A stretch of 12,043 bases of DNA from Verrucomicrobiota bacterium (GTDB taxonomy: Bacteria > Verrucomicrobiota > Verrucomicrobiia > Chthoniobacterales > UBA6821), in contig WBXG01000053.1 in NCBI GenBank assembly GCA_008932965.1, positions 1 through 12,043 on the forward strand, in the 5' to 3' direction. Shown here one piece after another: positions 579-12,043 of the stretch. The notes under the pieces were generated by a model, which was given only the letters and a program-made list of their open reading frames with translations, was not told the DNA's origin and did not search any database. Position numbers and translations under genes: made by a program. Every line of letters begins with the position of its first letter. Position 1 is the stretch's first letter.

Positions 579-1931
579 CTAAAGCCACGATTTCAGAGTC
601 AAAATCAAAAGCCATGCATTGAGTGCAAGAATTATTCCAGCAACACTCCATGCTGCTATTTTCATATACGAAGAGTTGACGAACTCCCCCATTTTCTTGG
701 CATTATTGGTAAAGCTAACCAGCGGAATAACGGCAAAACTGAGTTGCATGCTAAGAACAACCTGACTTGCTAGGAGAAGTTGATTCATTCCGCGATCGCC
801 CATAAACCAAACGACAATAATAGTTGGAATCAAAGCTAAAGACCGAGTTGCAAGACGTCGTACCCAGGGTTTCATTTTGAGTTGTAAAAACCCTTCCATG
901 ACAATCTGGCCTGCCATAGTCCCTGTAAGAGTACTGTTTTGACCTGCAGCGAGAAGTGCAATGGCAAAGAGGGTGCTGGCTCCGGTTACCCCAAGCATGG
1001 GAGAGAGAAGCTTATAAGCATCTTCAATTTCGGCAACATCATTGCGTCCCCCTTTAAAAAATGTTGCTGCTGCCACAATGAGAATAGCAGCGTTGATGAG
1101 CATGGCCAACGAGAGTGCTATGTTAGAATCAATACTTGCAAAACGAATCGCCTCTTTTTTTCCTATTTCGGTTAATGGATAGGAGCGAGTTTGTACAATG
1201 GAGGAGTGTAGGTAGAGATTGTGAGGCATCACGGTTGCCCCTAAAATTCCTATCGCTATATAGAGCATTCCTGGGTGGGTTATAATGTTAAGATGAGGTA
1301 CAAATCCAGCTGCAATAGCCATCCCACTGGGATGTGAAAATAAAATTTCAAGACCAAAGCAGATGCCAATAACCCCAATCAAGGTAATGATGAGTGCTTC
1401 TAAATAACGAAATCCTTTTTGTTGGAGAAAAAGTAGTGCAAAGACATCGAGTGCCGTAATACAGACTCCCCACATGATAGGAATATGAAAAAGAAGATTC
1501 AGGGCAATGGCAGATCCAATAATTTCTGCCAAATCACATGCAGTAATTGCTAATTCGCAGAGAACCCACAGTAGGAAATTCACACTAGGGCTGTAATGAG
1601 CGCGACACATCTGTGCAAGATTGCGCTCGGTAACAATACCTAATTTGAGCGACAGAGTCTGCAACAGCATTGCCATGATATTAGAAATAAAAATGACACA
1701 GAGCAGCGAGTAATTAAACTGAGAGCCAGCTGCTAGATCAGTAGCCCAATTTCCAGGGTCCATATACCCAACTGCAATGAGAAATCCTGGGCCGCTAAAG
1801 GCAAAAAGTTTTTTCCAAAAACTAAAATGTGCTGGAACTGGTATCGATCGATGTGATTGAGGAATGCTCTCTTCATTTAAAATTGTATTGGATTGAAAAC
1901 AATTTTTTTTAAAAAATGAAAAAAGAGACAT
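579..1931 (-). CDS. mntH: NRAMP-family divalent metal (Mn2+/Fe2+):H+ symporter MntH
   Basis: 450-aa ORF that is hydrophobic throughout. It has the NRAMP signature GPGFLIAVGYMDPGNWATDLAAGSQF near the N-terminus and ATVMPHNLYLHSSIVQTR mid-protein. About 11 predicted TM segments; length is typical for MntH. Confidence 0.93.
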   Translation of the reverse strand: MSLFSFFKKNCFQSNTILNEESIPQSHRSIPVPAHFSFWKKLFAFSGPGFLIAVGYMDPGNWATDLAAGSQFNYSLLCVIFISNIMAMLLQTLSLKLGIVTERNLAQMCRAHYSPSVNFLLWVLCELAITACDLAEIIGSAIALNLLFHIPIMWGVCITALDVFALLFLQQKGFRYLEALIITLIGVIGICFGLEILFSHPSGMAIAAGFVPHLNIITHPGMLYIAIGILGATVMPHNLYLHSSIVQTRSYPLTEIGKKEAIRFASIDSNIALSLAMLINAAILIVAAATFFKGGRNDVAEIEDAYKLLSPMLGVTGASTLFAIALLAAGQNSTLTGTMAGQIVMEGFLQLKMKPWVRRLATRSLALIPTIIVVWFMGDRGMNQLLLASQVVLSMQLSFAVIPLVSFTNNAKKMGEFVNSSYMKIAAWSVAGIILALNAWLLILTLKSWL

Positions 1932-1971
1932 TTGCTTAGAGTAGCAAATGATATTAGGTAAGGCTAATTTT

Positions 1972-1986
1972 ATTTTCTAAGAAAAT
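1972..1986. promoter_or_regulatory. Perfect 7-1-7 palindrome ATTTTCT-A-AGAAAAT in the mntH/pckG divergent intergenic region; candidate operator, function unknown
   Basis: Read directly: attttctaagaaaat, whose arms are exact reverse complements. It lies ~40-55 bp upstream of the mntH start on the minus strand, just upstream of a TAATAT -10-like hexamer (minus strand, about 1950-1955). I recognise no known regulator motif. Confidence 0.2.
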
Positions 1987-2016
1987 ATAAAACAGCCTTC
2001 GCTTCTTTTTCCACTG

Positions 2017-2079
2017 GATCGGTCTACAATATCTGGGCAAGCCCAGATTTCGTAGTAGATCGGTCTACAATATCCGGGC
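2017..2079. repeat. Pair of 22-bp direct repeats (gatcggtctacaatatcYgggc, 1 mismatch, 41-bp period); the first overlaps an 8-2-8 palindrome atctgggc-aa-gcccagat (2031-2048)
   Basis: Copy 1 is 2017-2038 and copy 2 is 2058-2079; they differ only at t2034/c2075. They lie 35-97 bp upstream of the pckG ATG (2114) in the 182-bp divergent intergenic region. Confidence 0.85.
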
Positions 2080-2113
2080 TAGACTCCTACTTCTGTTTCC
2101 ATAACACTGCTCT

Positions 2114-3970
2114 ATGATTCAAAATAAACCTTCTTTTGAAAAAAATGTAGAAAGGCACTCGCTGCGAAAAAAGAACGGCTCCAAAAGTTTGGATCAGATT
2201 CTCTTATTTGGGCAAAACGTTCCTTCTAATAAAAGCCTCAAGGAGTGGGTTCAACAAGTTGCATTACTGACACTACCAGATTGTGTTTTCTGGTGTGATG
2301 GAAGTGAAGAAGAAAAAGAGTATTTGAATGAACGGGCTGTTGCTCAAGGAGTGCTTATAAAGCTGGATCAAAAAAAGTGGCCTGGCTGCTACTACCATCA
2401 CTCGAACCCTAATGATGTTGCACGAGTGGAACAGAAGACCTTTATTTGCTCAGAGCGCAAGGAGGAGGCAGGCCCCACAAATAACTGGGCTGAACCGCAA
2501 GAAATGTATTCTAAGCTTGAGGAGATACTTCGTGGTTCGATGAAGGGTCGCACTCTTTATGTGATTACGTATCTTATGGGTCCTATAGGTTCTTCGATGA
2601 CCAGGGTAGGGGTGGAAATTACAGATTCTATTTATGTGGTCCTCAATATGAGAATCATGACACGTATGGGGAAGGTGGCTTGGAATCATTTGGGGGATAG
2701 TTCAAATTTTAATCGAGGTATTCATGCATTGCTTGATTGTAATCCTGAAAGGCGTTTTATTTGTCACTTTCCACAAGACAACACGATTATTTCTGTCGGT
2801 TCTGGGTATGGGGGAAATGTCCTTTTAGGAAAAAAATGCCTGGCTTTGCGTATTGGATCCGACTTAGGACGCAGGGAGGGATGGCTAGCTGAACATATGT
2901 TGCTCCTCTGTTTGGAAGACCCTCAAGGAAAAAAGACATATGTGGCAGCGGCTTTTCCTTCATCCTGTGGAAAAACAAATTTCGCAATGATGATTCCCCC
3001 TGCAAACTTTGAAGGCTGGAAGGTAACTACCATTGGTGATGACATTGCTTGGATGAGACCAGGAGAGGATGGAAGGCTCTATGCTATCAATCCTGAAGCA
3101 GGGTATTTTGGGGTTGTTCCAGGAACCAATGAGAGTTCCAATTGGAATGCAATGTCTATGATAAAAAAAGATACTATTTTTACTAATGTCGCACGTACTC
3201 CAGATGGAGATCTCTGGTGGGAGGGAAAAGATAACGCCCCTCCTTTAGGACTAATCGATTGGAAAGGTGATTTATGGGACCCTTTGAGTGCTGAAAAAGC
3301 GGCCCATCCCAACAGTCGTTTTACAGCTCCTATGAAAAATAATTCTGCATTGGCCGAGGAAGTCTATTGGCCAGAAGGGGTGCCCATTAGTGCTATTATT
3401 TTTGGAGGTCGGCGAGCCAATACAATGCCACTAGTATTTCAAGCATTTGATTGGATTCATGGAGTCTATATGGGAGCTACAGCAGGGTCTGAAATGACAG
3501 CTGCTGCAGCCGGTGGATTAGGCCAGGTTCGCAGAGACCCTATGGCTATGTTGCCGTTTTGTGGTTATAATATGGGGAAATATTTTGATCGCTGGTTGCA
3601 AATGCAATATCAGATTAAAGAGTTGCCCTCTATTTTTCATGTCAATTGGTTTCGCAAGGATGATGAAGGGAATTTTCTCTGGCCTGGTTTTGGTGAAAAT
3701 ATGCGCGTCTTGCAATGGATCGTAGAACGTTGCCAAGGGAGTGCCAGTGCACTGGAGACTCCGATTGGATGGATGCCTAGTTATGAAGATATGAATATGG
3801 ATGGCATTGCTGGTGGGATGACAGCCGAACGGTTTGCAGCATTGCAAAAAATTGATCCTGCAGAATGGAAACAAGAGCTTATTCTTCAAGAAGAATTTTT
3901 CATGAAGCTCTATCCTGATGTGCCCAAAGAATTGATCTCTCAACGAGAATTATTAATTTCAAGATTATGA
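2114..3970 (+). CDS. pckG: Phosphoenolpyruvate carboxykinase (GTP-dependent)
   Basis: 618-aa ORF with GTP-PEPCK hallmarks: the kinase-1a/P-loop region AAAFPSSCGKTNFAMM, IGDDIAWMRPGEDGRL, NPEAGYFGVVPGTN, HPNSRFTAP and FHVNWFRKDDEGNFLWPGFGENMRVLQWI. The length is typical of the GTP class. Confidence 0.95.
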   Translation: MIQNKPSFEKNVERHSLRKKNGSKSLDQILLFGQNVPSNKSLKEWVQQVALLTLPDCVFWCDGSEEEKEYLNERAVAQGVLIKLDQKKWPGCYYHHSNPNDVARVEQKTFICSERKEEAGPTNNWAEPQEMYSKLEEILRGSMKGRTLYVITYLMGPIGSSMTRVGVEITDSIYVVLNMRIMTRMGKVAWNHLGDSSNFNRGIHALLDCNPERRFICHFPQDNTIISVGSGYGGNVLLGKKCLALRIGSDLGRREGWLAEHMLLLCLEDPQGKKTYVAAAFPSSCGKTNFAMMIPPANFEGWKVTTIGDDIAWMRPGEDGRLYAINPEAGYFGVVPGTNESSNWNAMSMIKKDTIFTNVARTPDGDLWWEGKDNAPPLGLIDWKGDLWDPLSAEKAAHPNSRFTAPMKNNSALAEEVYWPEGVPISAIIFGGRRANTMPLVFQAFDWIHGVYMGATAGSEMTAAAAGGLGQVRRDPMAMLPFCGYNMGKYFDRWLQMQYQIKELPSIFHVNWFRKDDEGNFLWPGFGENMRVLQWIVERCQGSASALETPIGWMPSYEDMNMDGIAGGMTAERFAALQKIDPAEWKQELILQEEFFMKLYPDVPKELISQRELLISRL

Positions 3971-4872
3971 AGAAAAAATACCAATTCATGATGGTGCTCT
4001 GTTGTTTTTTTCAACTGCTTCATACCTCTTTTGCTTTAGCTGATACAATTCCTCCGAGTGACCCTTCTTCAGTGCCGATGCATCCACGTCCTGCTGACTG
4101 GAAGGTGATTTTTAATCGTGTCGTTTCCCTTTTTCATCATGATGGTGAATCATCAGAACATTCATCTAAAAAAATGAAGGGCCTTGCTCGCGCGGTGAGT
4201 TCTTTTCAGCCTTCCTGCGTGCTAGGTCTGCTACCTGTTTCTGATGAGGCCACTCTTAGCATGGAACAAGTAGACACATTTTGTTTTCTTCGTAAAGAAA
4301 TAGCGTCAACGAATCCTCATTGTAAATTTGAGGCGACCCTAAATCTGACACGATATCCAACAGCATCTGCACTCCTTTCAAAACTTCAAGAGATCAGTTT
4401 GAAAATTGCACCAGATATTTTTCTACTGGTTGTTCCTAAAAATAATGAGGTTGTTTACCCTTCTGTCTTGGCTAAGGGAATTGAGTACATTCACGAACAT
4501 GGTCAAGTCGTAGGATATGAAGGTCCAACCTCCATGATTCCTGATGGGATCGATTTTTTAATGATTTGTGCAGAGAATGGAATCATTCATCGAGAGGAAA
4601 TTGCTTCGCTGCGGATGAAACATCGTCTTCCTATTCTTGTTCGAGTTAATAAGTCGTTTTGGCATGAGAGTTCAACTTCATCAGAGCAGCATACTACCGA
4701 GGTGGAACAGGCAAAGTTACTCATACATCTTGCCGAGGAACAAAATGCCTTTGGATATCATTTTGTCTATCCCGTTCTCTCTGCCCTAGCCATGCGACAA
4801 CATGACTTTCATGATGCTGCAGAAAGTTCTTTGTTAGTGAGGATGAGAGCGTTGATGATGCGTTTTAATTAG
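3967..4872 (+). CDS. Hypothetical exported protein (N-terminal signal peptide), no family recognised
   Basis: 301-aa ORF. Its ATG overlaps the pckG stop (ATGA at 3967-3970), which suggests translational coupling. The N-terminus MKKKYQFMMVLCCFFQLLHTSFA/LADT has a positive n-region, a hydrophobic core and an A-x-A-like cleavage site. The rest is soluble-looking and I can name no motif in it. Confidence 0.6.
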   Translation: MKKKYQFMMVLCCFFQLLHTSFALADTIPPSDPSSVPMHPRPADWKVIFNRVVSLFHHDGESSEHSSKKMKGLARAVSSFQPSCVLGLLPVSDEATLSMEQVDTFCFLRKEIASTNPHCKFEATLNLTRYPTASALLSKLQEISLKIAPDIFLLVVPKNNEVVYPSVLAKGIEYIHEHGQVVGYEGPTSMIPDGIDFLMICAENGIIHREEIASLRMKHRLPILVRVNKSFWHESSTSSEQHTTEVEQAKLLIHLAEEQNAFGYHFVYPVLSALAMRQHDFHDAAESSLLVRMRALMMRFN

Positions 4873-4885
4873 AGCCTGTTACGTA

Positions 4886-5048
4886 TAGAGCATTTTAAAA
4901 AGAGTTATAGCCGCGTATTGCGTCGTCACTCCGAACGTCATCCCCGCGAAAGAGGGGATCGCGTCCTCGAGTATCGCTGGCTACACTGCGGGTCTCCGCT
5001 CCTCATTCCTGGCACTACATCGGCTATAACTCTTTTTAAAACGCTCTA
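4886..5048. repeat. 163-bp inverted-repeat element: 28-bp terminal inverted repeats (27/28 complementary) flanking a 107-bp GC-rich core; MITE-like, structured-RNA or bidirectional-terminator candidate
   Basis: The left arm 4886-4913 is tagagcattttaaaaagagttatagccg. The right arm 5021-5048 is cggctataactctttttaaaacgctcta, whose reverse complement differs at one base. The core is ~60% G+C by my hand count against an AT-rich background. It contains a hairpin atcccc-gcgaaaga-ggggat at 4940-4959. The element lies between convergent genes (3967-4872 + and 5261-5539 -). Confidence 0.6.
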
Positions 5049-5236
5049 GCCAAATTGCTTTGAAATTGCAAAAAATAGACTTGTTATTTTCAAGGAATAG
5101 CTTCGTTCTCATCACGTCACGTTATCTTTGGATAGCGCTTTGTCTGGCCTTGCTTTTTCTAAAAAATCCTGAATTCTTTCACATATTTTCAAAGTAATTT
5201 GACTATAGTGCCCGAACGCATTCTTTTTTAAAGCAA

Positions 5237-5264
5237 GGAATGGAACCTATGGAATGGAACCTAT
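5237..5264. repeat. Exact 14-bp tandem duplication (ggaatggaacctat x2) overlapping the stop codon of the 5261-5539 ORF
   Basis: Read directly: 5237-5250 is identical to 5251-5264. Confidence 0.9.
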
Positions 5265-5539
5265 TTTTGTATTGGTATTTGAAATTCCGATGTGAGGTCA
5301 TGGAACACTTTTGTCTCTTTTACAATGGGAAATGCAACATGAAATAAGATAGCTATGACAAAGATACATCCTGTTAGAATGTAAGAAAATGAGAGCATGA
5401 CATCAAGGCATCCCAAAAAAAGTGGAATCAGAGCCGCCAGAAGGCATTGTGTTGGAGATAGACCTAATAATCCTACCGAAAAATACATAACCCCTGCAAT
5501 AGCAGTGGATCTAAGACAACGAAAAACAATAGACTCCAT
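5261..5539 (-). CDS. Hypothetical small membrane protein (about 3 TM helices)
   Basis: 92-aa ORF with three hydrophobic stretches: STAIAGVMYFSVGLLGL, LLAALIPLFLGCLDVML and ILTGCIFVIAILFHVAFPIV. I recognise no homolog, and it is short, so coding status is uncertain. Confidence 0.4.
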   Translation of the reverse strand: MESIVFRCLRSTAIAGVMYFSVGLLGLSPTQCLLAALIPLFLGCLDVMLSFSYILTGCIFVIAILFHVAFPIVKETKVFHDLTSEFQIPIQK

Positions 5540-5654
5540 AAATCAAAAAATTAGGAATAAGATTAGAAACGAATTTTAAGCGCACATTGAAACTGGGTTT
5601 TCTTAAATGTGCAAGTTGTAAAAGCGCTCTCTGTTACTTTATAGAGAATAGTTC

Positions 5655-6551
5655 TCAAAAGCGTTGTTTCTGTTTTTTATTTGAATACCTCAATAAGAGT
5701 TTAGAAAGAAATTTTTGAGGATTGAAATCAAGCTGGTAAACTTTAGCAGCTGTTCGAAGAGCACTGCGATACTTCTTTAAACGTAGTAATAGAGCTATTC
5801 GAGTATGGTAATGAACAGAGCATTCTGGTTCTTTTGCGATAATCTGATCGAGCGCCGAGATGGCTTCTGTAAGCTTATGAGGATCTTCTGGGCCTTCGCG
5901 TTCTGCTAACAAGCCAACGAGTACTATTTGATCTTCAAGGAGTTCTGTAAAACCGGCAGGTTGAGGAGAGGGGGATGCTTTATCATTATTATCTACTTCC
6001 AATTCCTTTTTAAAAGAGATTATCTCACGAGCAGCCTCAATGCGTTGCTGTAATTCAGGAGCATGCTTGCGAGTATAAGAGAGCTGCTCAAGGAGTCGTT
6101 CTTGAATCCTTTTTTGATCTGCTCGCAACTCTTCCACTTCAGGAAGCAATTGCCTTGTTCTTTTCATCGATAGTAACGCTTCCTTAAACCGATGTTGACG
6201 TTCGAGTAGACTCGTTTTAAAGCGATGATAATTTCCATTATTGGGAAAAAGCTCCAGTGGCTTTTCTAGATAACCTATCGCTTCTTCAAGATATTCTTCG
6301 TTTGCTAAGAGATGGGCTAAAGCGACCAGATCTTCCGGGTCATTGTCAGAACACCAAAGAGCCCCAGTGGCCTTTTCAACAGCATCAGTGATGTTTTTAG
6401 CATTATTACGTTCCTGGCGGTACTTGAGCAATAAAAGCCGACGCGCGGTGATATCTAAAAGATCAATGGAGTAATGTGGATCACGAACCAGCGTATCGGC
6501 AATTAACTTTAAGATGGGTTCATTTTCTTCGAGGAGCTCTTGAGTAAACAT
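5655..6551 (-). CDS. TPR-like all-helical repeat protein with a central coiled-coil/charged segment; hypothetical
   Basis: 298-aa ORF starting 15 bp downstream of the preceding cluster gene. TPR-like units include EEYLEEAIGYLEKPLELFPNNGNYHRFKTSLLERQHRFKEALLSMKRTRQLLP and ISALDQIIAKEPECSVHYHTRIALLLRLKKYRSALRTAAKVYQLDFNP. They are separated by a charged helical stretch and an SPSPQP linker. Confidence 0.65.
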   Translation of the reverse strand: MFTQELLEENEPILKLIADTLVRDPHYSIDLLDITARRLLLLKYRQERNNAKNITDAVEKATGALWCSDNDPEDLVALAHLLANEEYLEEAIGYLEKPLELFPNNGNYHRFKTSLLERQHRFKEALLSMKRTRQLLPEVEELRADQKRIQERLLEQLSYTRKHAPELQQRIEAAREIISFKKELEVDNNDKASPSPQPAGFTELLEDQIVLVGLLAEREGPEDPHKLTEAISALDQIIAKEPECSVHYHTRIALLLRLKKYRSALRTAAKVYQLDFNPQKFLSKLLLRYSNKKQKQRF

Positions 6552-6566
6552 TAGCGTATTTTTAGG

Positions 6567-7172
6567 CTAGCTAGGATCAGTAGAATATGGCATAAGGTCT
6601 AAAATAACTTGTTGTTTAGAAAAAGAAGTATCGACTATAAACGCTGCCATTCTTCCAGCTTTCTTAGTTACTTTAAGATGTTTTTCTACCAAGTGATAGT
6701 GAGGGCGATCATAATAGTCATCAAACAAGATAATAGTTCCCAATTTTGAAAAAATTAAACTTGCTAAAAAACTAGCAGCGCGAAATCGCCCATCGATGAG
6801 AATCAGATCAGGCAATTCTGATGAAGCTAACATTTCTTTCCAAGCTGTTATACAGTAGTTAGGCCAATTCTTCATTAGTGAATGATCTGCTGGGTGGCCC
6901 CATTCTTTTGTTGGGCCAATATTTGAATAGTAAATCTTAAGATCAATTTTCGGATAGAGCTCCTGGGTTTTTTGTTGAACTGCCTGTAAAAAATGAAGGT
7001 CGGAGTCAATCGAATGGATTGTTGAAACACCACACTCCGCTGCAAAGAGAGTGCTGCCTCCAGATCCATATTCAAGATAAACTTTTGTTTTTTGAAGAGA
7101 TTCTTTAAGGAGATCTATTCCTTCTCGTTCCATGTGTGGGAGTAAAGGGATAATAGGGTTGTTTGGATTCAT
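6567..7172 (-). CDS. Class I SAM-dependent methyltransferase-fold protein (Methyltransf_24/DUF579-like), probable sugar O-methyltransferase
   Basis: 201-aa ORF. The glycine-rich motif I is VYLEYGSGGSTLFAAE, followed by IHSIDSD (an acidic residue ending beta-2) and the later DLILIDGRFRAASF block. This arrangement is typical of small polysaccharide-associated O-methyltransferase-like proteins. The subfamily assignment is from memory and not verified. Confidence 0.6.
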   Translation of the reverse strand: MNPNNPIIPLLPHMEREGIDLLKESLQKTKVYLEYGSGGSTLFAAECGVSTIHSIDSDLHFLQAVQQKTQELYPKIDLKIYYSNIGPTKEWGHPADHSLMKNWPNYCITAWKEMLASSELPDLILIDGRFRAASFLASLIFSKLGTIILFDDYYDRPHYHLVEKHLKVTKKAGRMAAFIVDTSFSKQQVILDLMPYSTDPS

Positions 7173-7204
7173 TTTTATTTATTTATCAAAATAAGTGTCT
7201 TATT

Positions 7205-8119
7205 TCATTCAAAAACAACACTTAGAAGATCTTTTTTAACAGCTGGATAATCATTAATTTTTTGAGTAGGTTGGCCGTTTTCAAGAAGGTAGCATGAATA
7301 TCCATAGGATTTCATTTGGTCAATATATTGATATGATGTTGCATTAGATACTTTCATTAGCTGCGAAGGATGCAACTCCGATAAGATAGGTGGTTTTTTA
7401 ACTTTAAATAAAATTTTAGCACCTTTGAAGACTAAAGGTTCTGCACCCTCTACATCAATTTTTATAATATCAGGAAAAATATTTGGTAGAAGTTCATCCA
7501 GTGGTGCCGCTTTGACTTTAATAGCTTCTTGATTTGAAGAGGGGATTTCTCCTTTAAAAACAAAAGATCCCCCTGGATTATCAGTATGAAATCCTGAGTA
7601 GAGATTTAATTCCTCCCATTTATCTAATAGAGCATAGTTCCAGAGATGAACGCGATCATCCAACTTATTATGAGTCAAAGTGCGTTTAAGCATCTTTGCT
7701 GTTTCTGGTCGAGGCTCAAAAGCATAAATAGCACCTTCATCTCCAATGTGCTTAGCTGCTACTAACGTAAACCAACCTATATTAGCGCCAATATCAAAAA
7801 CAATACTTTGATCTTCTAACTTCGAAATAAAATAATCTGTTTCACTAGGTTCCCATGAATTATTCAAACATCCTTTCGAGACATAGTTATCAGACAAATC
7901 AATCCATTGTGTATAACAATCTAAGATATCGACAGCAACCCATTTTGAGTTAGTAAAACCAAATCCATTTTGATTCTTAAACTCACTTGAGTTCAAAAAT
8001 ATTTTTCTCAATTGGTTAAAATTTTCTAACTGTAGCTTTTGCGTTATTACTTCTTCAGATTCTGGAACTCTTCCGAGGATTGCTCGATAGCACCAAACTA
8101 TTTCTTCTCTTGTAACCAT
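7205..8119 (-). CDS. FkbM-family SAM-dependent methyltransferase with an N-terminal DUF4214-like module
   Basis: 304-aa ORF. FkbM hallmarks are VFDIGANIGWFTLVAAKH...IYAFEPRPETAKMLKRTL and IIKIDVEGAEPLVFKGA. The N-terminal ~50 aa MVTREEIVWCYRAILGRVPESEEVITQKLQLENFNQLRKIFLNSSEFKN (about 7970-8119) are the shared module, copy D. Confidence 0.85.
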   Translation of the reverse strand: MVTREEIVWCYRAILGRVPESEEVITQKLQLENFNQLRKIFLNSSEFKNQNGFGFTNSKWVAVDILDCYTQWIDLSDNYVSKGCLNNSWEPSETDYFISKLEDQSIVFDIGANIGWFTLVAAKHIGDEGAIYAFEPRPETAKMLKRTLTHNKLDDRVHLWNYALLDKWEELNLYSGFHTDNPGGSFVFKGEIPSSNQEAIKVKAAPLDELLPNIFPDIIKIDVEGAEPLVFKGAKILFKVKKPPILSELHPSQLMKVSNATSYQYIDQMKSYGYSCYLLENGQPTQKINDYPAVKKDLLSVVFE

Positions 8120-8137
8120 TTTAATGTTTATATTAAC

Positions 8138-9085
8138 TTATTTTTTAATAATAAAAGTATTGGAGAGATAACGGGCAGGATCACCAGTTGATCCATCTTC
8201 ACGTACTTCTAATAGTTGACATTGCGCATCAGCAATAAGAGAAAAAATAAGAGATTGTGGGAGAGCGTGCATCTGCATATCAAGCGGATGGTCTTTTGCA
8301 ATCCATTCTTTTGTATTAAAAGAATAGTCTTTGATATAGGTAGGCACTTGAAAAATGGCTATTCCTCCAGGAAGGAGAGAGGCTAAGGCCATTTTAATAA
8401 GATGACGTATGAGGGGAGGAGGATTATGTTGTAAGACAATCCTAGAGTAAAAGCAATGACACTTTTCTAATGGTTCCAACAAATCATCAGAACAAAGATG
8501 GAAATGACATTGAGAATATCCTTTTTCGACTGCTTTTTGTTTTGCGATTTCTAAATGTCCTTCAGAAATATCATAAGCATCCACCTGAGCAAAAAGACTA
8601 GCAAGCCCCATCGTCACACGTCCTACACCACATCCATATTCCACAATCTTTTTAGAGGATAAATCCTCCAAGGAATAATTTTTAAGAATCGTTTCTAAAT
8701 GAGATGCTTCGCCTTCACCAGATTTCCAAAAGTCTTCTTCGTAATTATTTAAGTTTTCGGGAAGAAAATTTTTATTGGTGAGTACAGAAAAGTGAGGTCC
8801 AATAATGCCTAGATGAGTCCAAGCCTCTTTGATTTTTCTAATACACGCTTGAAGCTCTTCTTCACTACACCCCATTAAAATATTATTTTTTGGCAATGTT
8901 AGTGGAAGATAGGTATTTCTTTCTTGGATATTAAATTTACTTTTAAACTCTTTTGAATCTAGGAATATTTTCCTCAGTTGATCAAAGTTTTCTAATTTCA
9001 TCTTCCCAGCAATGACTTCTTCTGATTCTGGAATCCTACCAAGAATCGTTCTGTAGCACCAAATAACTTCCTCCCGAGTAATCAT
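8138..9085 (-). CDS. Class I SAM-dependent methyltransferase (Methyltransf_11/25-like) with an N-terminal DUF4214-like module
   Basis: 315-aa ORF. Motif I is IVEYGCGVGRVTMGLA, followed by VDAYDISEGHLEIAKQKA and a post-motif GGIAIFQVP. The N-terminal ~50 aa MITREEVIWCYRTILGRIPESEEVIAGKMKLENFDQLRKIFLDSKEFKS (about 8936-9085) are the shared module, copy C. Confidence 0.8.
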   Translation of the reverse strand: MITREEVIWCYRTILGRIPESEEVIAGKMKLENFDQLRKIFLDSKEFKSKFNIQERNTYLPLTLPKNNILMGCSEEELQACIRKIKEAWTHLGIIGPHFSVLTNKNFLPENLNNYEEDFWKSGEGEASHLETILKNYSLEDLSSKKIVEYGCGVGRVTMGLASLFAQVDAYDISEGHLEIAKQKAVEKGYSQCHFHLCSDDLLEPLEKCHCFYSRIVLQHNPPPLIRHLIKMALASLLPGGIAIFQVPTYIKDYSFNTKEWIAKDHPLDMQMHALPQSLIFSLIADAQCQLLEVREDGSTGDPARYLSNTFIIKK

Positions 9086-9509
9086 AATATTAATTTTATT
9101 AGTTATTTTTATTTTATTAGTTTCATTTTTCCTCTAGTTTTTTTAATAGAGATTTAAATTCTAGTGATTTTAAAAAAGCAGTTCGTAATTGTTCAAAATT
9201 TTCTAGTTTCATTTTTTCAGAAATGACTTTCTCTGATTCTGGAACCCTACCAAAAATCGTTCTGTAGCACCAAATAACTTCCTCTCGAGTAATCATAACA
9301 TTAATTTCGTTAGTTATTTTTATTTTATTAGCTTCATTTTTTTCCTCTAGTTTTTTTAATAGAGATTTAAATTCTAGTGATTTTAAAAAAGCAGTTCGTA
9401 ATTGTTCAAAATTTTCAACTTGCATATTTTGATCAATGACTTCCTCGGACTCAGGTTCCCTGCCGAGAATAGTACGGTAGCACCAAATAACTTCTTCTTT
9501 TGTAATTAG
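9086..9509 (-). repeat. Tandem ~212-bp coding repeat (two full units of 213 and 211 bp); a third partial unit continues into 8936-9085 across the gene boundary
   Basis: Unit 1 is 9297-9509 (213 bp, module A plus linker NEANKIKITNEINV). Unit 2 is 9086-9296 (211 bp, module B plus a degenerate linker containing the GT17 stop). A 73-bp stretch is perfectly identical between units (9131-9203 = 9344-9416). The array continues with the N-terminal module of the 8138-9085 gene. Confidence 0.9.
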
Positions 9510-10457
9510 ACCAGAATGGGAAAAGCGAAAAAGATGGTAATAAGAGGGTAGATCCTTCAGTACAGGAGAAGGAATATTTGAATTTAACTCATTAGTAATG
9601 ATATCTAAAAGTTGTTTGTGAAGTTGATCATTATAGGGCTTTAAACTTGATATTTGATTTTCTCGTGTAATCGCTAATGGTTTTGCATCATTTGAATTAG
9701 AACTATTTTTACTGGCTCCATGAGTAAAATTAGCAACTTTATATTCAACACACTTTTTTCCTCCAAAATAGGTTAAATGCCAACCTGCATTCTCAAGTAA
9801 TATTACTTTTTGATTTTTATAAAAAGGACTGATGTCATATCTTCTTCCTGGATTAACAATTTTTTGTGAGTTTATTAATTCATTACTTTTATCTAAATTG
9901 CAATATTTTCTCCCTGCCCCTGCAATATTATTTCTTAGTTCTACTGGGAAATATTTTCCAAAGATATTATAACGAATTGCAATAGAACCGAGCCATTTAT
10001 ATTTTTTATCTGAAGTATTACCTTCAATAAAAAACTTTCTGATATCCTGTTGAAAAAGGTATATTTCATCTTCTATACAACTTTTTGATACTTCTTGAAC
10101 AACACTGTTTTTTGGTATTTCATCAACATCAGAAATGATAACAAGGTCATCATTAGATAATTCTAACTCTAATAATGCAGGCATGATTTGATTCTTATGA
10201 TAAATTTCAAGCCATTGTCGATTTTTTTCCGTATCTGAAATAAGTGGAGGTAGATTCATTACCTTAAAATGATGAATTTTAGATAGAAATGCAGAAAACC
10301 TTTCTTTGTTTTCATCAAAATAAAAAGGTTTTTTTATTCCGGCAAAAGTTTTGGCACATTCGACAAGAACAAATTTATCTACGATATTCCAGAGTTCTTT
10401 TAGTCTAATTTCTAATGTATCTAATTCATTAAAAAACGGAAAAGCGTCAATGATCAT
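9123..10457 (-). CDS. GT17-like glycosyltransferase (GnT-III-like, beta-1,4-N-acetylglucosaminyltransferase family) with two C-terminal DUF4214-like modules
   Basis: 444-aa ORF. The N-terminus MIIDAFPFFNELDTLEIRLKELWNIVDKFVLVECAKTFAGIKKPFYF, the DLVIISDVDEIP (DxD-type) segment and the later GWHLTYFGG block match my memory of bacterial CAZy GT17 members. Residues ~317-373 (9339-9509) and 388-444 (9126-9296) are shared-module copies A and B, joined by a 14-aa linker. Confidence 0.7.
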   Translation of the reverse strand: MIIDAFPFFNELDTLEIRLKELWNIVDKFVLVECAKTFAGIKKPFYFDENKERFSAFLSKIHHFKVMNLPPLISDTEKNRQWLEIYHKNQIMPALLELELSNDDLVIISDVDEIPKNSVVQEVSKSCIEDEIYLFQQDIRKFFIEGNTSDKKYKWLGSIAIRYNIFGKYFPVELRNNIAGAGRKYCNLDKSNELINSQKIVNPGRRYDISPFYKNQKVILLENAGWHLTYFGGKKCVEYKVANFTHGASKNSSNSNDAKPLAITRENQISSLKPYNDQLHKQLLDIITNELNSNIPSPVLKDLPSYYHLFRFSHSGLITKEEVIWCYRTILGREPESEEVIDQNMQVENFEQLRTAFLKSLEFKSLLKKLEEKNEANKIKITNEINVMITREEVIWCYRTIFGRVPESEKVISEKMKLENFEQLRTAFLKSLEFKSLLKKLEEK

Positions 10458-10505
10458 TTTTATATTAATTTAAATAATTTATTTATAACATTGAGGAAAT
10501 ATTTT

Positions 10506-12043
10506 TTAATCATTTGCATGAATAACTCTTTTTAAAAATGCTTCCCATTGAGGCAATATTTCCTCTTGAGAGTAGCGAGAGGAGACTTCATCTCCTTGTT
10601 TTTTGAGTTCCGCTTGGACTTCCTGTGCGTTGGGTGCGTAGAGGACTTTTTTGAGAGCATGCACAAGGCTCATTGTTGAGTAAGGATTAAAATATTCTGC
10701 TGCTCGTTCATAGATTTCGCGGTGAACGGGAATATCAGAGGCTATGGCTATTCCACCTGACATCATGGCTTCGACTCCTGAAAAGTCAAAGCCTTCAAAG
10801 AGGCTGGGACAGACGGTTGCTGCTGCATGACTATAGAGAACACGTAGATCGGGAGCTGGGACAGAATTCAACATAAAAAGCTCACCCCGATCGATCCATG
10901 TTTTGAGCGTTTTAACGATGGCGGTATAACCCCAACCTAAGGTGCCAACGATGACTAATTTTATATTTGGATTAATTTCTTCTTTGAGAATTTCCCAAGC
11001 AGCTAACACACGCGTATGATTTTTGCGCGGTTCAATGGTAGAGACCACAAGAAGGTATTGAAACTCTTTATCAAAAAGATGCCGTTTGAAGAAATTTTCT
11101 TGCTCACGCAAATTTAAAAACTCAGGAGAAACTCCTAATCCCTTGGCTTCTGGGTCAAAGCCATAAATTCTAGAACGAATAATTCCACGCACCCGTTCAA
11201 AAGAGGTCGTCTCTTTAAAATAATGATGCGAGACGCTATTGTGGATCGTGACGACGCGATCGGCTATTTTCGGGAAAAGTCTTAATAAATCTTGCCGTGA
11301 TGATTCTGAAACGCAAGCAAACCAGGCTTTTGATTTGACATTGCTAACCAAAGCATGAATGTGCGTTGCCTGATGACTAGAAACGTCATTGATAGTGTGC
11401 GGCATGAAAATGGGAATCGCATCATGATAACGAACGACGAATTTAGTATTTTTACTGATGCGTGCTGGATAAGGAGTTTGCGCAATAAAGATATCAATAT
11501 CTTGTGTTGCTATTTTTGGATATTTTGGTGAAAAGCTCCAATTGAGTGAACCGAGCCCTGCCATATGCAACGTGAACCACGAAACCGAGCAAATACGATG
11601 AGGTGCGCGCGTGATAGTATCAAACTCTACCGGAGGTAGTGTCTTTGCAAAAAAGGAGCGCCATATAAAATCTTCAAAGGAGGATGGATCGAAAGAAGTT
11701 AACTTAATTTTTCCGATATTTGTGAAGAGCGAAAGTTGCAGAGCCATGGCTTCTGAGCGTTTATCGAACCAGTCCATCCATTTCTCCAGTAGTGTCAAAT
11801 AAGGCCGTTCCTTCATCGAAATGATAACATTAGAATATTTGGCATAACGTGCTGCTGGTTTTAGTAAACGCACCCAAAATCCTCCAATTCCTGATTGTTT
11901 TATTCCTTTAGCTATTTTGTGAGTGGGGCCTTGCAGCAGTCCTTCAAGATGAACTGAAGGAATCTTACTTAAATTAGAAAAAAGGAGACGTGTTTCTTGT
12001 GGGATACCTGCAAAACCTTCTGTGGCAGGACGTAGTTCTAAAA
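10506..12043 (-). CDS. GT4-family (GT-B fold) glycosyltransferase; 5' end beyond the window
   Basis: The track starts this ORF at a GTG (11873). My hand translation shows the same frame stays open to the window edge: LELRPATEGFAGIPQETRLLFSNLSKIPSVHLEGLLQGPTHKIAKGIKQSGIGGFW-VRLLK.... The GIPQETRLLF segment looks like a GT N-terminal nucleotide-sugar-fold start. The C-terminal half has the GT4 signature LLVVSTIEPRKN...VIVGTLGWGY...PSLFEGFDFSGVEAMMSGGIAIASDIPVHREI (EX7E motif). Confidence 0.85.
   Translation of the reverse strand, partial: LELRPATEGFAGIPQETRLLFSNLSKIPSVHLEGLLQGPTHKIAKGIKQSGIGGFWVRLLKPAARYAKYSNVIISMKERPYLTLLEKWMDWFDKRSEAMALQLSLFTNIGKIKLTSFDPSSFEDFIWRSFFAKTLPPVEFDTITRAPHRICSVSWFTLHMAGLGSLNWSFSPKYPKIATQDIDIFIAQTPYPARISKNTKFVVRYHDAIPIFMPHTINDVSSHQATHIHALVSNVKSKAWFACVSESSRQDLLRLFPKIADRVVTIHNSVSHHYFKETTSFERVRGIIRSRIYGFDPEAKGLGVSPEFLNLREQENFFKRHLFDKEFQYLLVVSTIEPRKNHTRVLAAWEILKEEINPNIKLVIVGTLGWGYTAIVKTLKTWIDRGELFMLNSVPAPDLRVLYSHAAATVCPSLFEGFDFSGVEAMMSGGIAIASDIPVHREIYERAAEYFNPYSTMSLVHALKKVLYAPNAQEVQAELKKQGDEVSSRYSQEEILPQWEAFLKRVIHAND

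Follow-up and report, generated by a model that had tools for sequence, protein, structure and literature searches.

Why should three neighbouring genes, which code for glycan enzymes of different kinds, all carry the same short module? This is the question raised by the DNA that we have studied, a window of 12,043 nucleotides from a metagenome-assembled genome (MAG) of an uncultured bacterium of the Verrucomicrobiota. An earlier reading of its letters (the sequence-only reading) had described a module of about 50 amino acids in four places, in tandem on a GT17-like protein and at the N-termini of two methyltransferases, and had suggested that it is a common tag. We have located all four copies. 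They are listed here with the genes around them:

5655-6551, minus strand: TPR protein, without module
6567-7172, minus strand: protein of 201 aa, without module
7205-8119, minus strand: FkbM-family methyltransferase, 304 aa (Methyltransf_21, E = 9e-18; TIGR01444, E = 3e-26)
7970-8119, minus strand: module D, N-terminus of the FkbM methyltransferase, aa 1-50
8138-9085, minus strand: class I SAM methyltransferase, 315 aa (Methyltransf_25, E = 5e-11)
8936-9085, minus strand: module C, N-terminus of the class I methyltransferase, aa 1-50
9123-10457, minus strand: GT17-like glycosyltransferase, 444 aa (Glyco_transf_17, E = 2.4e-27), catalytic part about 9510-10457
9147-9296, minus strand: module B, aa 388-437 of the GT17-like protein
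9360-9509, minus strand: module A, aa 317-366 of the GT17-like protein, in a C-terminal extension
10506-12043, minus strand: GT4 glycosyltransferase (Pfam), without module, truncated by the end of the window

A docking tag should be shared by at least two proteins of a pathway, and three genes of the window carry the module. It is not present on every enzyme of the operon, as had been supposed: it is missing from the GT4 (10506-) and from the 201-aa protein (6567-7172). The catalytic domains had also been described as unrelated folds. This is true of the glycosyltransferase; the two methyltransferases belong to separate families, but both of them are expected to have a Rossmann-like class I fold. 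The model and the profile of the class I methyltransferase have only generic class I methyltransferases as PDB relatives. The aligned stretch lies beyond query position 100, past the module, in all the 60 listed of the 103 PDB matches of the profile. No useful PDB relatives were found for the FkbM methyltransferase and the GT17-like protein.

The four copies are closely similar. Over 50 aa, module A has 40 residues identical to B, 36 to C and 32 to D; the other pairs have 39 (B-C), 33 (B-D) and 36 (C-D), which agrees with the earlier hand counts of 39/49 for B-C and 36/49 for C-D. In a BLASTP comparison of whole proteins with the carrier of module D as reference, C, B and A are found with E values of 7e-24, 1e-20 and 3e-19, and nothing outside the module aligns. 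The likeness is therefore far beyond chance. Among A, C and D the synonymous sites are saturated and dN is 0.15-0.26 (0.25-0.26 for A against C and D). The saturation rules out recent gene conversion, and these values indicate that purifying selection acts on A, C and D, which are old copies. A second module-like stretch in the class I methyltransferase (aa 73-124) falls below significance, with E = 0.32. Membrane targeting by the modules was dismissed, as their net charge of -4 to +1 is neither clearly cationic nor strongly acidic.

To which family does the module belong? The resemblance to DUF4214 which had been noticed is valid at the level of the superfamily, whereas no copy reaches the cut-off of the Pfam family. 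Only module D matches the PF13946 (DUF4214) HMM, with 12.9 bits (E = 0.12) over positions 26-71 of the 72 in the profile, while the gathering cut-off is 23.2 bits. Modules A, B and C have no match at E <= 10 and the whole carrier proteins none at E <= 1. When a profile of 114 modules is compared by hhalign with eight canonical DUF4214 units, the probability is 93.8% (E = 1.7e-7, 44 columns); the canonical units come from proteins which score 51-123 bits on PF13946 and which were originally found with the module profile. Both have equal unit length and a core Y-R-x-x-L-G-R-x-P-[DE] ... S-x-E. After L-G-R-x-P they differ: the module continues with E-S-E-x-V-I-x-x-H, canonical DUF4214 with D-x-x-G-l-x-y-W. 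Furthermore, the canonical DUF4214 proteins found here appear to be secreted or built of several repeats (calpain-type peptidase, fn3), whereas the module subfamily is found on cytoplasmic glycan enzymes.

The module profile also gives significant matches to the phycobilisome linker domain (PF00427; REP domains of ApcE, CpcC/CpcG), a small helical protein-protein adaptor. Among the solved domains, ApcE (7vea) is matched with E = 5.6e-14 over several repeats, and the single linker domains 3osj and 2l06 with E = 3.2e-6 and 3.8e-6, aligned at chain residues 93-136. The alignment falls on the 'FRHILGRxP...S.EY' half of the linker; its N-terminal 'YRQIFERD' motif is aligned too, and the linker domain has two such motifs. 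The module corresponds only to about positions 70-115 of the full linker model of about 126 positions (P0003, P0007, P0011). Some relatives exceed the DUF4214 and PBS_linker_poly cut-offs right at the position of the module, and P0003 exceeds both. Verrucomicrobia are not known as makers of phycobilisomes, and we have found no phycobiliprotein-related genes among the window genes, the carriers or the neighbours examined.

The subfamily has the signature Y-R-x-[ILF]-L-G-R-x-P-E-S-E ... L-R ... S-x-E-F. In a set of 93 modules from very different loci, chosen by their catalytic domain only, R17-x-P19-E20-S21 are 98-100% conserved (S21 99%). The mean pairwise identity in this set is 49% for the module and 57% for the catalytic domain. 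In the AF2 model of module C, residues 1-51 form four helices with pLDDT 81-93 (means of 10-residue blocks), while the tether to the methyltransferase, residues 52-57, falls below 50. The models thus predict a disordered linker between module and enzyme. In the model of the native tandem A-linker-B, too, each module has four helices (pLDDT 90.6 and 91.1), and the linker between them has a low pLDDT. The pTM of this model, 0.82, an indirect measure of packing obtained with an alignment which consisted of tandem pairs, may be read as confident packing of A on B. In a Foldseek search with this tandem model the top matches are all linker domains, with E = 0.1-1, TMq 0.34-0.40 and rmsd 9-10 Å, so that the predicted likeness to whole linker domains is weak. 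Each copy is an autonomous four-helix domain of about 50 residues. Within the DUF4214/phycobilisome-linker superfamily these domains form a subfamily of their own.

According to the sequence-only reading, a module found only in this tandem array would have spoken against a tag; this is not the case. A full HMMER scan gives at least 1,622 protein clusters with the module, and it is present in 49 loci of other species. It is most commonly placed at the N-terminus of methyltransferases, sulfotransferases and pyruvyltransferases. The 119 top matches include about 31 class I methyltransferases, 19 FkbM, 9 Sulfotransfer_2, 4 pyruvyltransferase and 2 ABC_tran proteins; among 66 carrier ORFs of other genomes there are 24 class I methyltransferases, 15 FkbM and 5 WcbI. 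Two KpsT/Wzt-like ABC ATPases, of the capsule/O-antigen type, also bear it. One of them (P0041, locus L050) has two modules at its C-terminus, aa 224-337, and lies beside FkbM methyltransferases; the ATPase of the sister-MAG cluster has 225 aa and no extension. Loci with the module are rich in GT4 and Wzm/Wzt genes. Two to four adjacent carrier genes are found in 15 of 48 loci and a single one in about two thirds of them; these counts cover +/-6 kb, and the number of carriers per locus is a lower bound. Orthologous enzymes have from 1 to 5 copies. Module A is 71% identical to its neighbour C, as compared with a between-locus mean of 44%; in most loci with several modules, these are no closer to each other than to modules elsewhere.

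The genes of the window do not all have the same history. The module is present in 95 of the 117 closest homologues of the class I methyltransferase, in 92 of them inside the first 30 residues, and about 10% of its orthologues truly lack it. The catalytic part of the FkbM enzyme is matched by 35 sequences, which are module-bearing proteins and locus ORFs, the window's own included. The joining of the module to either kind of methyltransferase, class I or FkbM, is an old architecture that has been inherited vertically. None of the 119 homologues of the GT17-like enzyme, with a median length of 284 aa, has a module, which indicates that this enzyme gained it within the present lineage. Its gene lies in a variable cassette. 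The cassette and the junctions around module B have the following features:

9112-10521, minus strand: low-GC variable cassette with the GT17-like gene, A and B, missing from the sister MAG L001
9337-9343, minus strand: A7 homopolymer at the end of module A
9297-9338, minus strand: linker NEANKIKITNEINV joining A to B; by DNA alignment, the B-to-C intergenic spacer in a copy that is translated
9086-9125, minus strand: stop codon of the glycosyltransferase gene and spacer upstream of the class I methyltransferase gene

The GC content of the cassette is 28-32%, against about 40-45% across most of the window. A blastn comparison of the window with L001 aligns only at 7634-9111 and 10522-12043, which places the boundary at 9111, 26 nt upstream of module C. 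In place of the cassette L001 has a GT90-like gene with two modules and a fusion protein made of a GT-like domain, a module and a methyltransferase.

Module B has a mixed composition. It retains its own ATG (9294-9296). Its nucleotides 1-66 are matched by C at 62/66 and by A at 49/66, while repeat nucleotides 94-171 are matched by A at 78/78 and by C at 47/78. The repeat periods are 213 and 211 nt. The counterpart of the A7 run after module B is A5 (9126-9130), followed by the TGA stop (9123-9125); owing to the two additional A's, the reading frame of the glycosyltransferase stays open into B. These alignments indicate that B is a recent chimeric copy, which resembles C in its 5' part and is the same as A in its 3' part, and that it arose by unequal recombination of about 212 nt between A and C, with in-frame fusion through the two additional A's. 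Thus the four copies are all present, as had been described, but they are not all independent. A simple assembly artefact is unlikely, given the divergence of 15-24% between the repeat copies and the cleanly chimeric junction; a chimeric assembly of the metagenome is conceivable. In the route of spread that we propose, the 5' module of a downstream gene and the spacer upstream of it would be duplicated, and read-through would fuse the copy to the 3' end of the upstream gene. This route is demonstrated for B, which is a clear example of gene-to-gene spread of a domain inside an operon. For A we infer it: this module may have had an earlier origin by the same route and have been retained afterwards by selection.

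The gene order in the sister MAG is Wzm-Wzt-GT4-variable GT-methyltransferase-FkbM methyltransferase, and its GT4 orthologue has 522 aa. No other conserved neighbour of module-bearing genes is as common as the GT4: its homologues are found in 17 of the 49 other loci, and a collinear block Wzm-Wzt-GT4-module gene is present in L001, L003, L008 and L034. This organisation is observed directly; the carriers would be cytoplasmic enzymes of an ABC-transporter-dependent polysaccharide pathway. The TPR protein and the 201-aa protein, on the contrary, have homologues only in the sister MAG among the 49 other loci.

What could the module do in such a pathway? We found no functional study in the literature of the module on glycan enzymes. 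We suggest a portable adaptor, which would hold the enzymes at one assembly site through protein-protein contacts. These would be either pairing of module with module or binding to a conserved component of the pathway, such as the GT4 of about 520 aa or the transporter ATPase; polymerisation, capping or decoration, and export would be coupled in this way. We tentatively give this putative, flexibly tethered adaptor somewhat less than an even chance, and prefer it to a glycan-binding module, which we find rather unlikely. The earlier idea of a common tag is consistent with the distribution of the module on many unrelated glycan-tailoring enzymes, on ABC export ATPases and in a normally module-free GT family, while glycan binding explains most of the same facts. 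It counts for the adaptor that the phycobilisome linkers, which alone among the homologues have been characterised, act as protein-protein scaffolds and contain two motifs of this kind in one domain, and that numerous unrelated catalytic families within one type of pathway carry the module, as do KpsT/Wzt-like ATPases. The adjacent carrier genes in 15/48 loci, the sister-MAG protein which joins GT-like domain, module and methyltransferase, and the saturated synonymous sites with low dN of A, C and D argue in the same direction. So do the predicted packing of the A-B tandem (pTM 0.82) and the fact that 0/119 GT17-like homologues have the module, yet A is so similar to C. The near-invariant R17-x-P19-E20-S21 across very different loci would fit a partner that is itself conserved better than a glycan that varies. 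On the other side, a single carrier gene in about two thirds of the loci is a poor fit to obligate hetero-docking, and 1-5 copies among orthologous enzymes are more typical of multivalent ligand-binding repeats. The weak three-dimensional likeness to linker domains (TMq 0.34-0.40), the lack of greater similarity inside most multi-module loci and the methyltransferase orthologues without module also count against the adaptor. A more speculative version, which we regard as conceivable, is that a self-associating, phycobilisome-linker-like mini-domain would be the common plug by which, in many bacterial phyla, polymerising glycosyltransferases, enzymes of capping or decoration and in some cases the ATPase of the exporter are brought into a single glycan assembly line in the cytoplasm; recruits would gain the plug by duplication of a 5' end onto their own 3' end.

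The module might rather target the substrate, by binding the nascent polysaccharide, its capped end or its lipid-linked form in a CBM-like way. Its distribution is indeed CBM-like: it is found at N- or C-termini, with flexible linkers, in 1-5 tandem copies and on many glycan-acting families. Wzt of E. coli O8/O9a has a glycan-cap-binding domain at its C-terminus, and on some transporters the module would act like it, as the two modules at the C-terminus of a KpsT/Wzt-like ATPase with adjoining FkbM methyltransferases would suggest. The Wzt domain has a beta-sandwich fold, whereas the models of the module are small and all-alpha, with four helices each. The greater similarity of modules within a locus, as between A and C, is what readers of a common glycan would show. 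Canonical DUF4214 is found in secreted, surface-associated proteins. A preprint reports that over 80% of Psh-type DUF4214 genes adjoin O-antigen or T1SS operons, and proposes O-antigen binding (10.64898/2026.09.02.748959); this proximity favours glycan binding. Psh, a secreted RTX-DUF4214 protein of Pseudomonas putida, has in common with our loci a DUF4214-superfamily domain, a linkage to O-antigen and a proposed glycan-related role (10.64898/2026.09.02.748959). It differs in being extracellular and exported by T1SS, with a canonical DUF4214 unit unlike the module subfamily, and its O-antigen binding comes from in-silico docking and genetics; sugar binding for DUF4214 has been claimed in silico only (10.64898/2026.09.02.748959). 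Residues which include the subfamily-specific P-E-S-E are near-invariant across phyla and across loci with differing GT sets, which is unexpected for a reader of variable glycans, and the characterised homologues are protein binders. On this balance we consider substrate targeting a rather doubtful alternative to the adaptor.

It is improbable that the copies have no shared function and are a by-product of local recombination, the module being a stabilising N-terminal cap which is sometimes copied to neighbours. B is demonstrably such a product, the cassette boundary just upstream of C shows recombination around modules, the two methyltransferase architectures are old and vertically inherited, and some orthologues manage without the module. 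Against this, A has been retained under purifying selection on a glycosyltransferase whose 119 homologues lack it, and over 10 unrelated catalytic families carry the module, as do ABC ATPases. It lies outside the catalytic fold, behind a disordered linker, and is nearly as conserved as the catalytic domain (49% vs 57%). The partner proposed by the sequence-only reading, the adjacent TPR protein as a scaffold on which the modules of the glycosyltransferase and the two methyltransferases would dock, has fared worse and seems to us very improbable. TPR domains are general protein-binding scaffolds, this protein is conserved beside the enzymes in the sister MAG, and TPR_19 is matched in 3 of 66 carrier proteins. 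Its homologues are absent from the 48 loci besides the sister MAG, the 25 commonest families of the 124 neighbouring ORFs in 26 loci include none of the TPR type, and the module family is far more widespread than the TPR protein.

The adaptor which we prefer may be compared with known systems. Dockerin/cohesin in cellulosomes and the docking domains of PKS/NRPS provide a working analogy, in which a linker attaches a short module to many different catalytic domains and these are thereby brought into one assembly. They have no sequence or fold relationship to the module, whose self-association is hypothetical. Another parallel is WbdD, which tethers itself to WbdA and to the membrane via a non-catalytic region; it has a C-terminal coiled coil and not an N-terminal four-helix DUF4214-like unit. 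The methyltransferase profile has 103 sequence matches in the PDB, and the 60 that are listed include no WbdD. In its own systems WbdD is described as both a regulator of chain length and a terminator (PMC3482155, PMC7820976). The transport-elongation-termination (TET) operons of O-antigens exported by ABC transporters, such as wzm-wzt-wbdD-wbdA of E. coli O9a and those of P. syringae, have an ABC-2 transporter, a GT4-type polymerase and an adjoining SAM methyltransferase (PMC3482155, PMC7820976); module loci share this gene logic of transporter, GT4 and SAM methyltransferase together. A fusion of GT and methyltransferase is found in some P. syringae isolates (PMC7820976) as well as in the sister MAG. 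By parallel with the wzm-wzt-wbdD-wbdA operon, the methyltransferases may decorate or cap the glycan, and those which bear the module might terminate the chain.

The route by which soluble tailoring and terminating enzymes reach the growing chain in ABC-transporter-dependent synthesis is detailed for few models, e.g. WbdD/WbdA. A module present in at least 1,622 clusters, mostly missed by Pfam, offers a general and testable handle on the targeting of enzymes to the chain. If true, the adaptor role would be the first cellular role for part of the DUF4214 superfamily. There is also a gain in annotation: in the precomputed Pfam annotation of about 120 module-bearing methyltransferase orthologues, DUF4214 is found in only three, and all the others carry only methyltransferase domains, with the module unflagged.

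A module of about 50 residues is found four times on three consecutive genes of the window, as the sequence-only reading had noticed; its copies A–D share 32–40 of 50 residues pairwise. Whole-protein BLASTP matches the modules between carriers with E = 3e-19 to 7e-24 and aligns no stretch outside them. The carriers lie in an operon-like row on the minus strand, from a GT4 glycosyltransferase through a TPR protein (accessions KAB2643321-25, Verrucomicrobia bacterium MAG):

10506 to window end, minus: GT4 glycosyltransferase
9123-10457, minus: GT17-like glycosyltransferase, 444 aa
9360-9509, minus: module A, GT17-like aa 317-366
9337-9343, minus: A7 homopolymer after module A
9147-9296, minus: module B, GT17-like aa 388-437
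9126-9130, minus: A5 homopolymer after module B
8138-9085, minus: class I SAM methyltransferase
8936-9085, minus: module C, class I methyltransferase aa 1-50
7205-8119, minus: FkbM methyltransferase
7970-8119, minus: module D, FkbM methyltransferase aa 1-50
6567-7172, minus: 201-aa protein
5655-6551, minus: TPR protein

The same reading placed a module on each enzyme of the operon, which is not the case: the GT4 and the 201-aa protein have none. The 201-aa protein (6567-7172) is named class I SAM-dependent methyltransferase by NCBI; it has no convincing Pfam family (best E = 0.053, chance level) and no NCBIfam model, and homologues of it were found in the sister MAG only. The GT4 gene (10506-12043) extends past the window end; the GTG at 11873 in the ORF list is probably not its true start, its orthologue in L001, the sister MAG, having 522 aa.

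The window copies are not recognised by the Pfam DUF4214 model: only D matches, and its 12.9 bits fall short of the cut-off (23.2). The resemblance to DUF4214 first claimed is thus lost at the level of the Pfam model, but it holds at superfamily level. When a five-sequence profile was run with HMMER against all 1.84 billion cluster representatives, 1,622 proteins matched at E <= 1e-3, 264 of them at E <= 1e-10; the module thus exists well beyond this array. A 114-sequence profile built from these matches aligns with canonical DUF4214 units (hhalign probability 93.8%) and with solved phycobilisome-linker domains (ApcE, E = 5.6e-14; 3osj, E = 3e-6), covering their 'FRHILGRxP...S.EY' half. Some family members are above both Pfam cut-offs, DUF4214 and PBS_linker_poly, at the module position. 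In AF2 models each module has four short helices: the tandem A-linker-B reaches pLDDT 90.6 and pTM 0.82, the full methyltransferase pLDDT 91.1 with a flexible, disordered tether at residues 52-57. The best Foldseek matches are all phycobilisome-linker domains, although weak (E = 0.1-1, TMq 0.34-0.40). From the profile, Pfam and structure matches together, the module represents a subfamily of its own within the DUF4214/linker superfamily, recognisable by P-E-S-E-x-V-I in place of the P-D-x-x-G-l-x-y-W of canonical DUF4214. One protein of 425 aa (P0019) has an N-terminal canonical DUF4214 (63 bits, Pfam) and three C-terminal P-E-S-E modules which Pfam misses; judged by sequence, it shows that both subfamilies coexist and are distinct.

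The module is carried by many catalytic families. In the 150 best of the 1,622 HMMER matches plus P0002, a protein from a word-indexed search (n = 151), it is N-terminal in 81, C-terminal in 22, internal or other in 19, and the remaining 29 are short proteins or fragments; there are 1 to 5 copies per protein. The partners in 119 top matches are class I methyltransferases (about 31), FkbM (19), sulfotransferases (9), pyruvyltransferases (4) and others. A set of 66 carrier ORFs from 46 loci of other species, two near-duplicate Roseomonas loci being left out, has class I methyltransferases (24), FkbM (15), WcbI (5), Sulfotransfer_2 (4) and GSCFA (3), plus GT1/2/4 and TylF. When homologues were collected by the catalytic domain of the methyltransferase, 95 of the 117 closest carry the module; about 10 truly lack it and the rest are truncated calls or have a more canonical DUF4214. 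None of 119 GT17-like homologues has it (median length 284 aa). In modules picked through their catalytic domain only, Y11, L15, R17, P19, E20, S21, L37 and E46 are 96-100% conserved, S44 and F47 91-92%.

Two KpsT/Wzt-like ABC transporter ATPases also carry the module. One (P0132) has a single N-terminal copy. The other (P0041, GCA_026190835.1, 10001-11035) has two C-terminal copies; it lies in a capsule-type locus (KpsM, Poly_export, Capsule_synth) and adjoins two FkbM methyltransferases and a 1,261-aa multi-GT4 protein.

The neighbourhood of the module points to polysaccharide export. GT4 (12 of 124 ORFs), ABC_tran (5), ABC2_membrane (5) and capsule genes predominate among the neighbours. 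A homologue of Wzm, Wzt (membrane part and ATPase of the exporter) or GT4 is found within 6 kb in 22 of 50 loci, the window included. A collinear Wzm-Wzt-GT4-carrier block is present in L001, Hydrogenophilus, a Methylococcaceae MAG and a Hydrogenophilales MAG; it occupies about 1300-7000 in each of L003, L008, L034 and L001, with a GT4 of about 520 aa and a module-bearing methyltransferase as carrier. Its GT4 orthologues match with E = 1e-195 to 1e-223, and such likeness across Verrucomicrobia, Hydrogenophilus/Hydrogenophilales and Methylococcaceae suggests that the Wzm-Wzt-GT4-methyltransferase block is a horizontally mobile unit. The window locus has its parallel in the transport-elongation-termination operons for O-antigens of the O9a type and for the common polysaccharide antigen of P. 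syringae (PMC3482155, PMC7820976); in the latter, glycosyltransferase and methyltransferase are sometimes fused (PMC7820976). We found no description in the literature of the P-E-S-E subfamily or of its link to glycan-tailoring enzymes; this variant of DUF4214 is real and widespread. The known tethering device of the O9a-type and P. syringae operons is a coiled coil, not this module.

The block in L001, a syntenic Chthoniobacterales MAG, comprises Wzm, a Wzt-like ATPase, GT4, a variable region, methyltransferase, FkbM, the 201-aa protein and the TPR protein, and is 92-94% identical to the window on both flanks of the variable region. In the alignment of both genomes 9112-10521 has no L001 counterpart. 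It comprises the GT17-like gene with its modules A and B, and its GC content is 28-32%, where most of the window has about 40-45%. Its place in L001 is taken by a GT90-like protein, whose two N-terminal modules are diverged, and by a 646-aa protein in which a single module stands between a GT-like domain and the orthologous methyltransferase. By gene order in the window and by fusion in L001, the module stands exactly at the GT/methyltransferase junction in both genomes. The cassette looks like a serotype-type exchange of glycosyltransferases. Its right-hand boundary is 26 nt upstream of module C. The L001 FkbM orthologue is interrupted (6967-7455, ORF of 162 aa, about 105 nt of window 7529-7633 missing); either a pseudogene or a misassembly could account for this.

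The module is a candidate adaptor or glycan binder. We lean, tentatively, towards a protein-protein adaptor, which would act through module pairing or through contact with a conserved pathway component, a partner which we infer. Those relatives that have been characterised are all protein scaffolds, with two such motifs packed into each domain; the native tandem A-B is predicted as one unit and a GT-module-methyltransferase fusion is on record. The main rival, a glycan-binding module, appears rather less probable. It agrees with the CBM-like architecture, the varying copy number and a position on the ATPase equivalent to that of the cap-binding domain of Wzt, as well as with the association between DUF4214 proteins and O-antigen loci; the subfamily motif is invariant in loci that must produce different glycans, which favours the adaptor. 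As partner of such an adaptor the TPR protein had been put forward, without support here: no TPR family is among the 25 commonest neighbour families (124 ORFs).

Modules of one locus may be closest to each other. C and D are 71% identical; C has 43-53% identity with modules of orthologous methyltransferases elsewhere, D 33-53% with those of orthologous FkbM enzymes. In multi-module loci the nearest relative is in the same locus in 15 of 38 cases, partly whole-gene duplicates, where a rough estimate expects about 1 by chance; many such loci do not have this effect. A, C and D are by their substitutions old copies, with synonymous sites saturated (pS 0.77-0.94, dN 0.15-0.26).

Module B is, as read from its DNA, a recent recombination product of A and C. 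Its nt 1-66 are C-like (62/66 identical to C, 49/66 to A), while nt 94-171 are those of A (78/78, against 47/78 to C). The 14-residue A-B 'linker' is translated from a duplicate of the spacer that separates the GT stop codon from the methyltransferase start, and the repeat periods around A/B/C are 213 and 211 nt. In length the spacer copies differ at one place only, which reads GAGG-A7-TGA behind A and GAGG-A5-TGA behind B. Five A's put the TGA in frame; seven keep the reading frame open, and it continues into B's own ATG. An unequal A-C exchange thus duplicated a segment running from the 3' half of A across the spacer into the 5' half of C, and the duplicate was joined to the GT by two additional A's. 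B is fused in frame only through the seven-A homopolymer, a slippage-prone tract: the GT-B fusion might alternate between on and off states, or might itself be a variant introduced by sequencing or assembly. With its own ATG retained and a spacer of the methyltransferase type upstream, B could also yield a free module of 57 aa.
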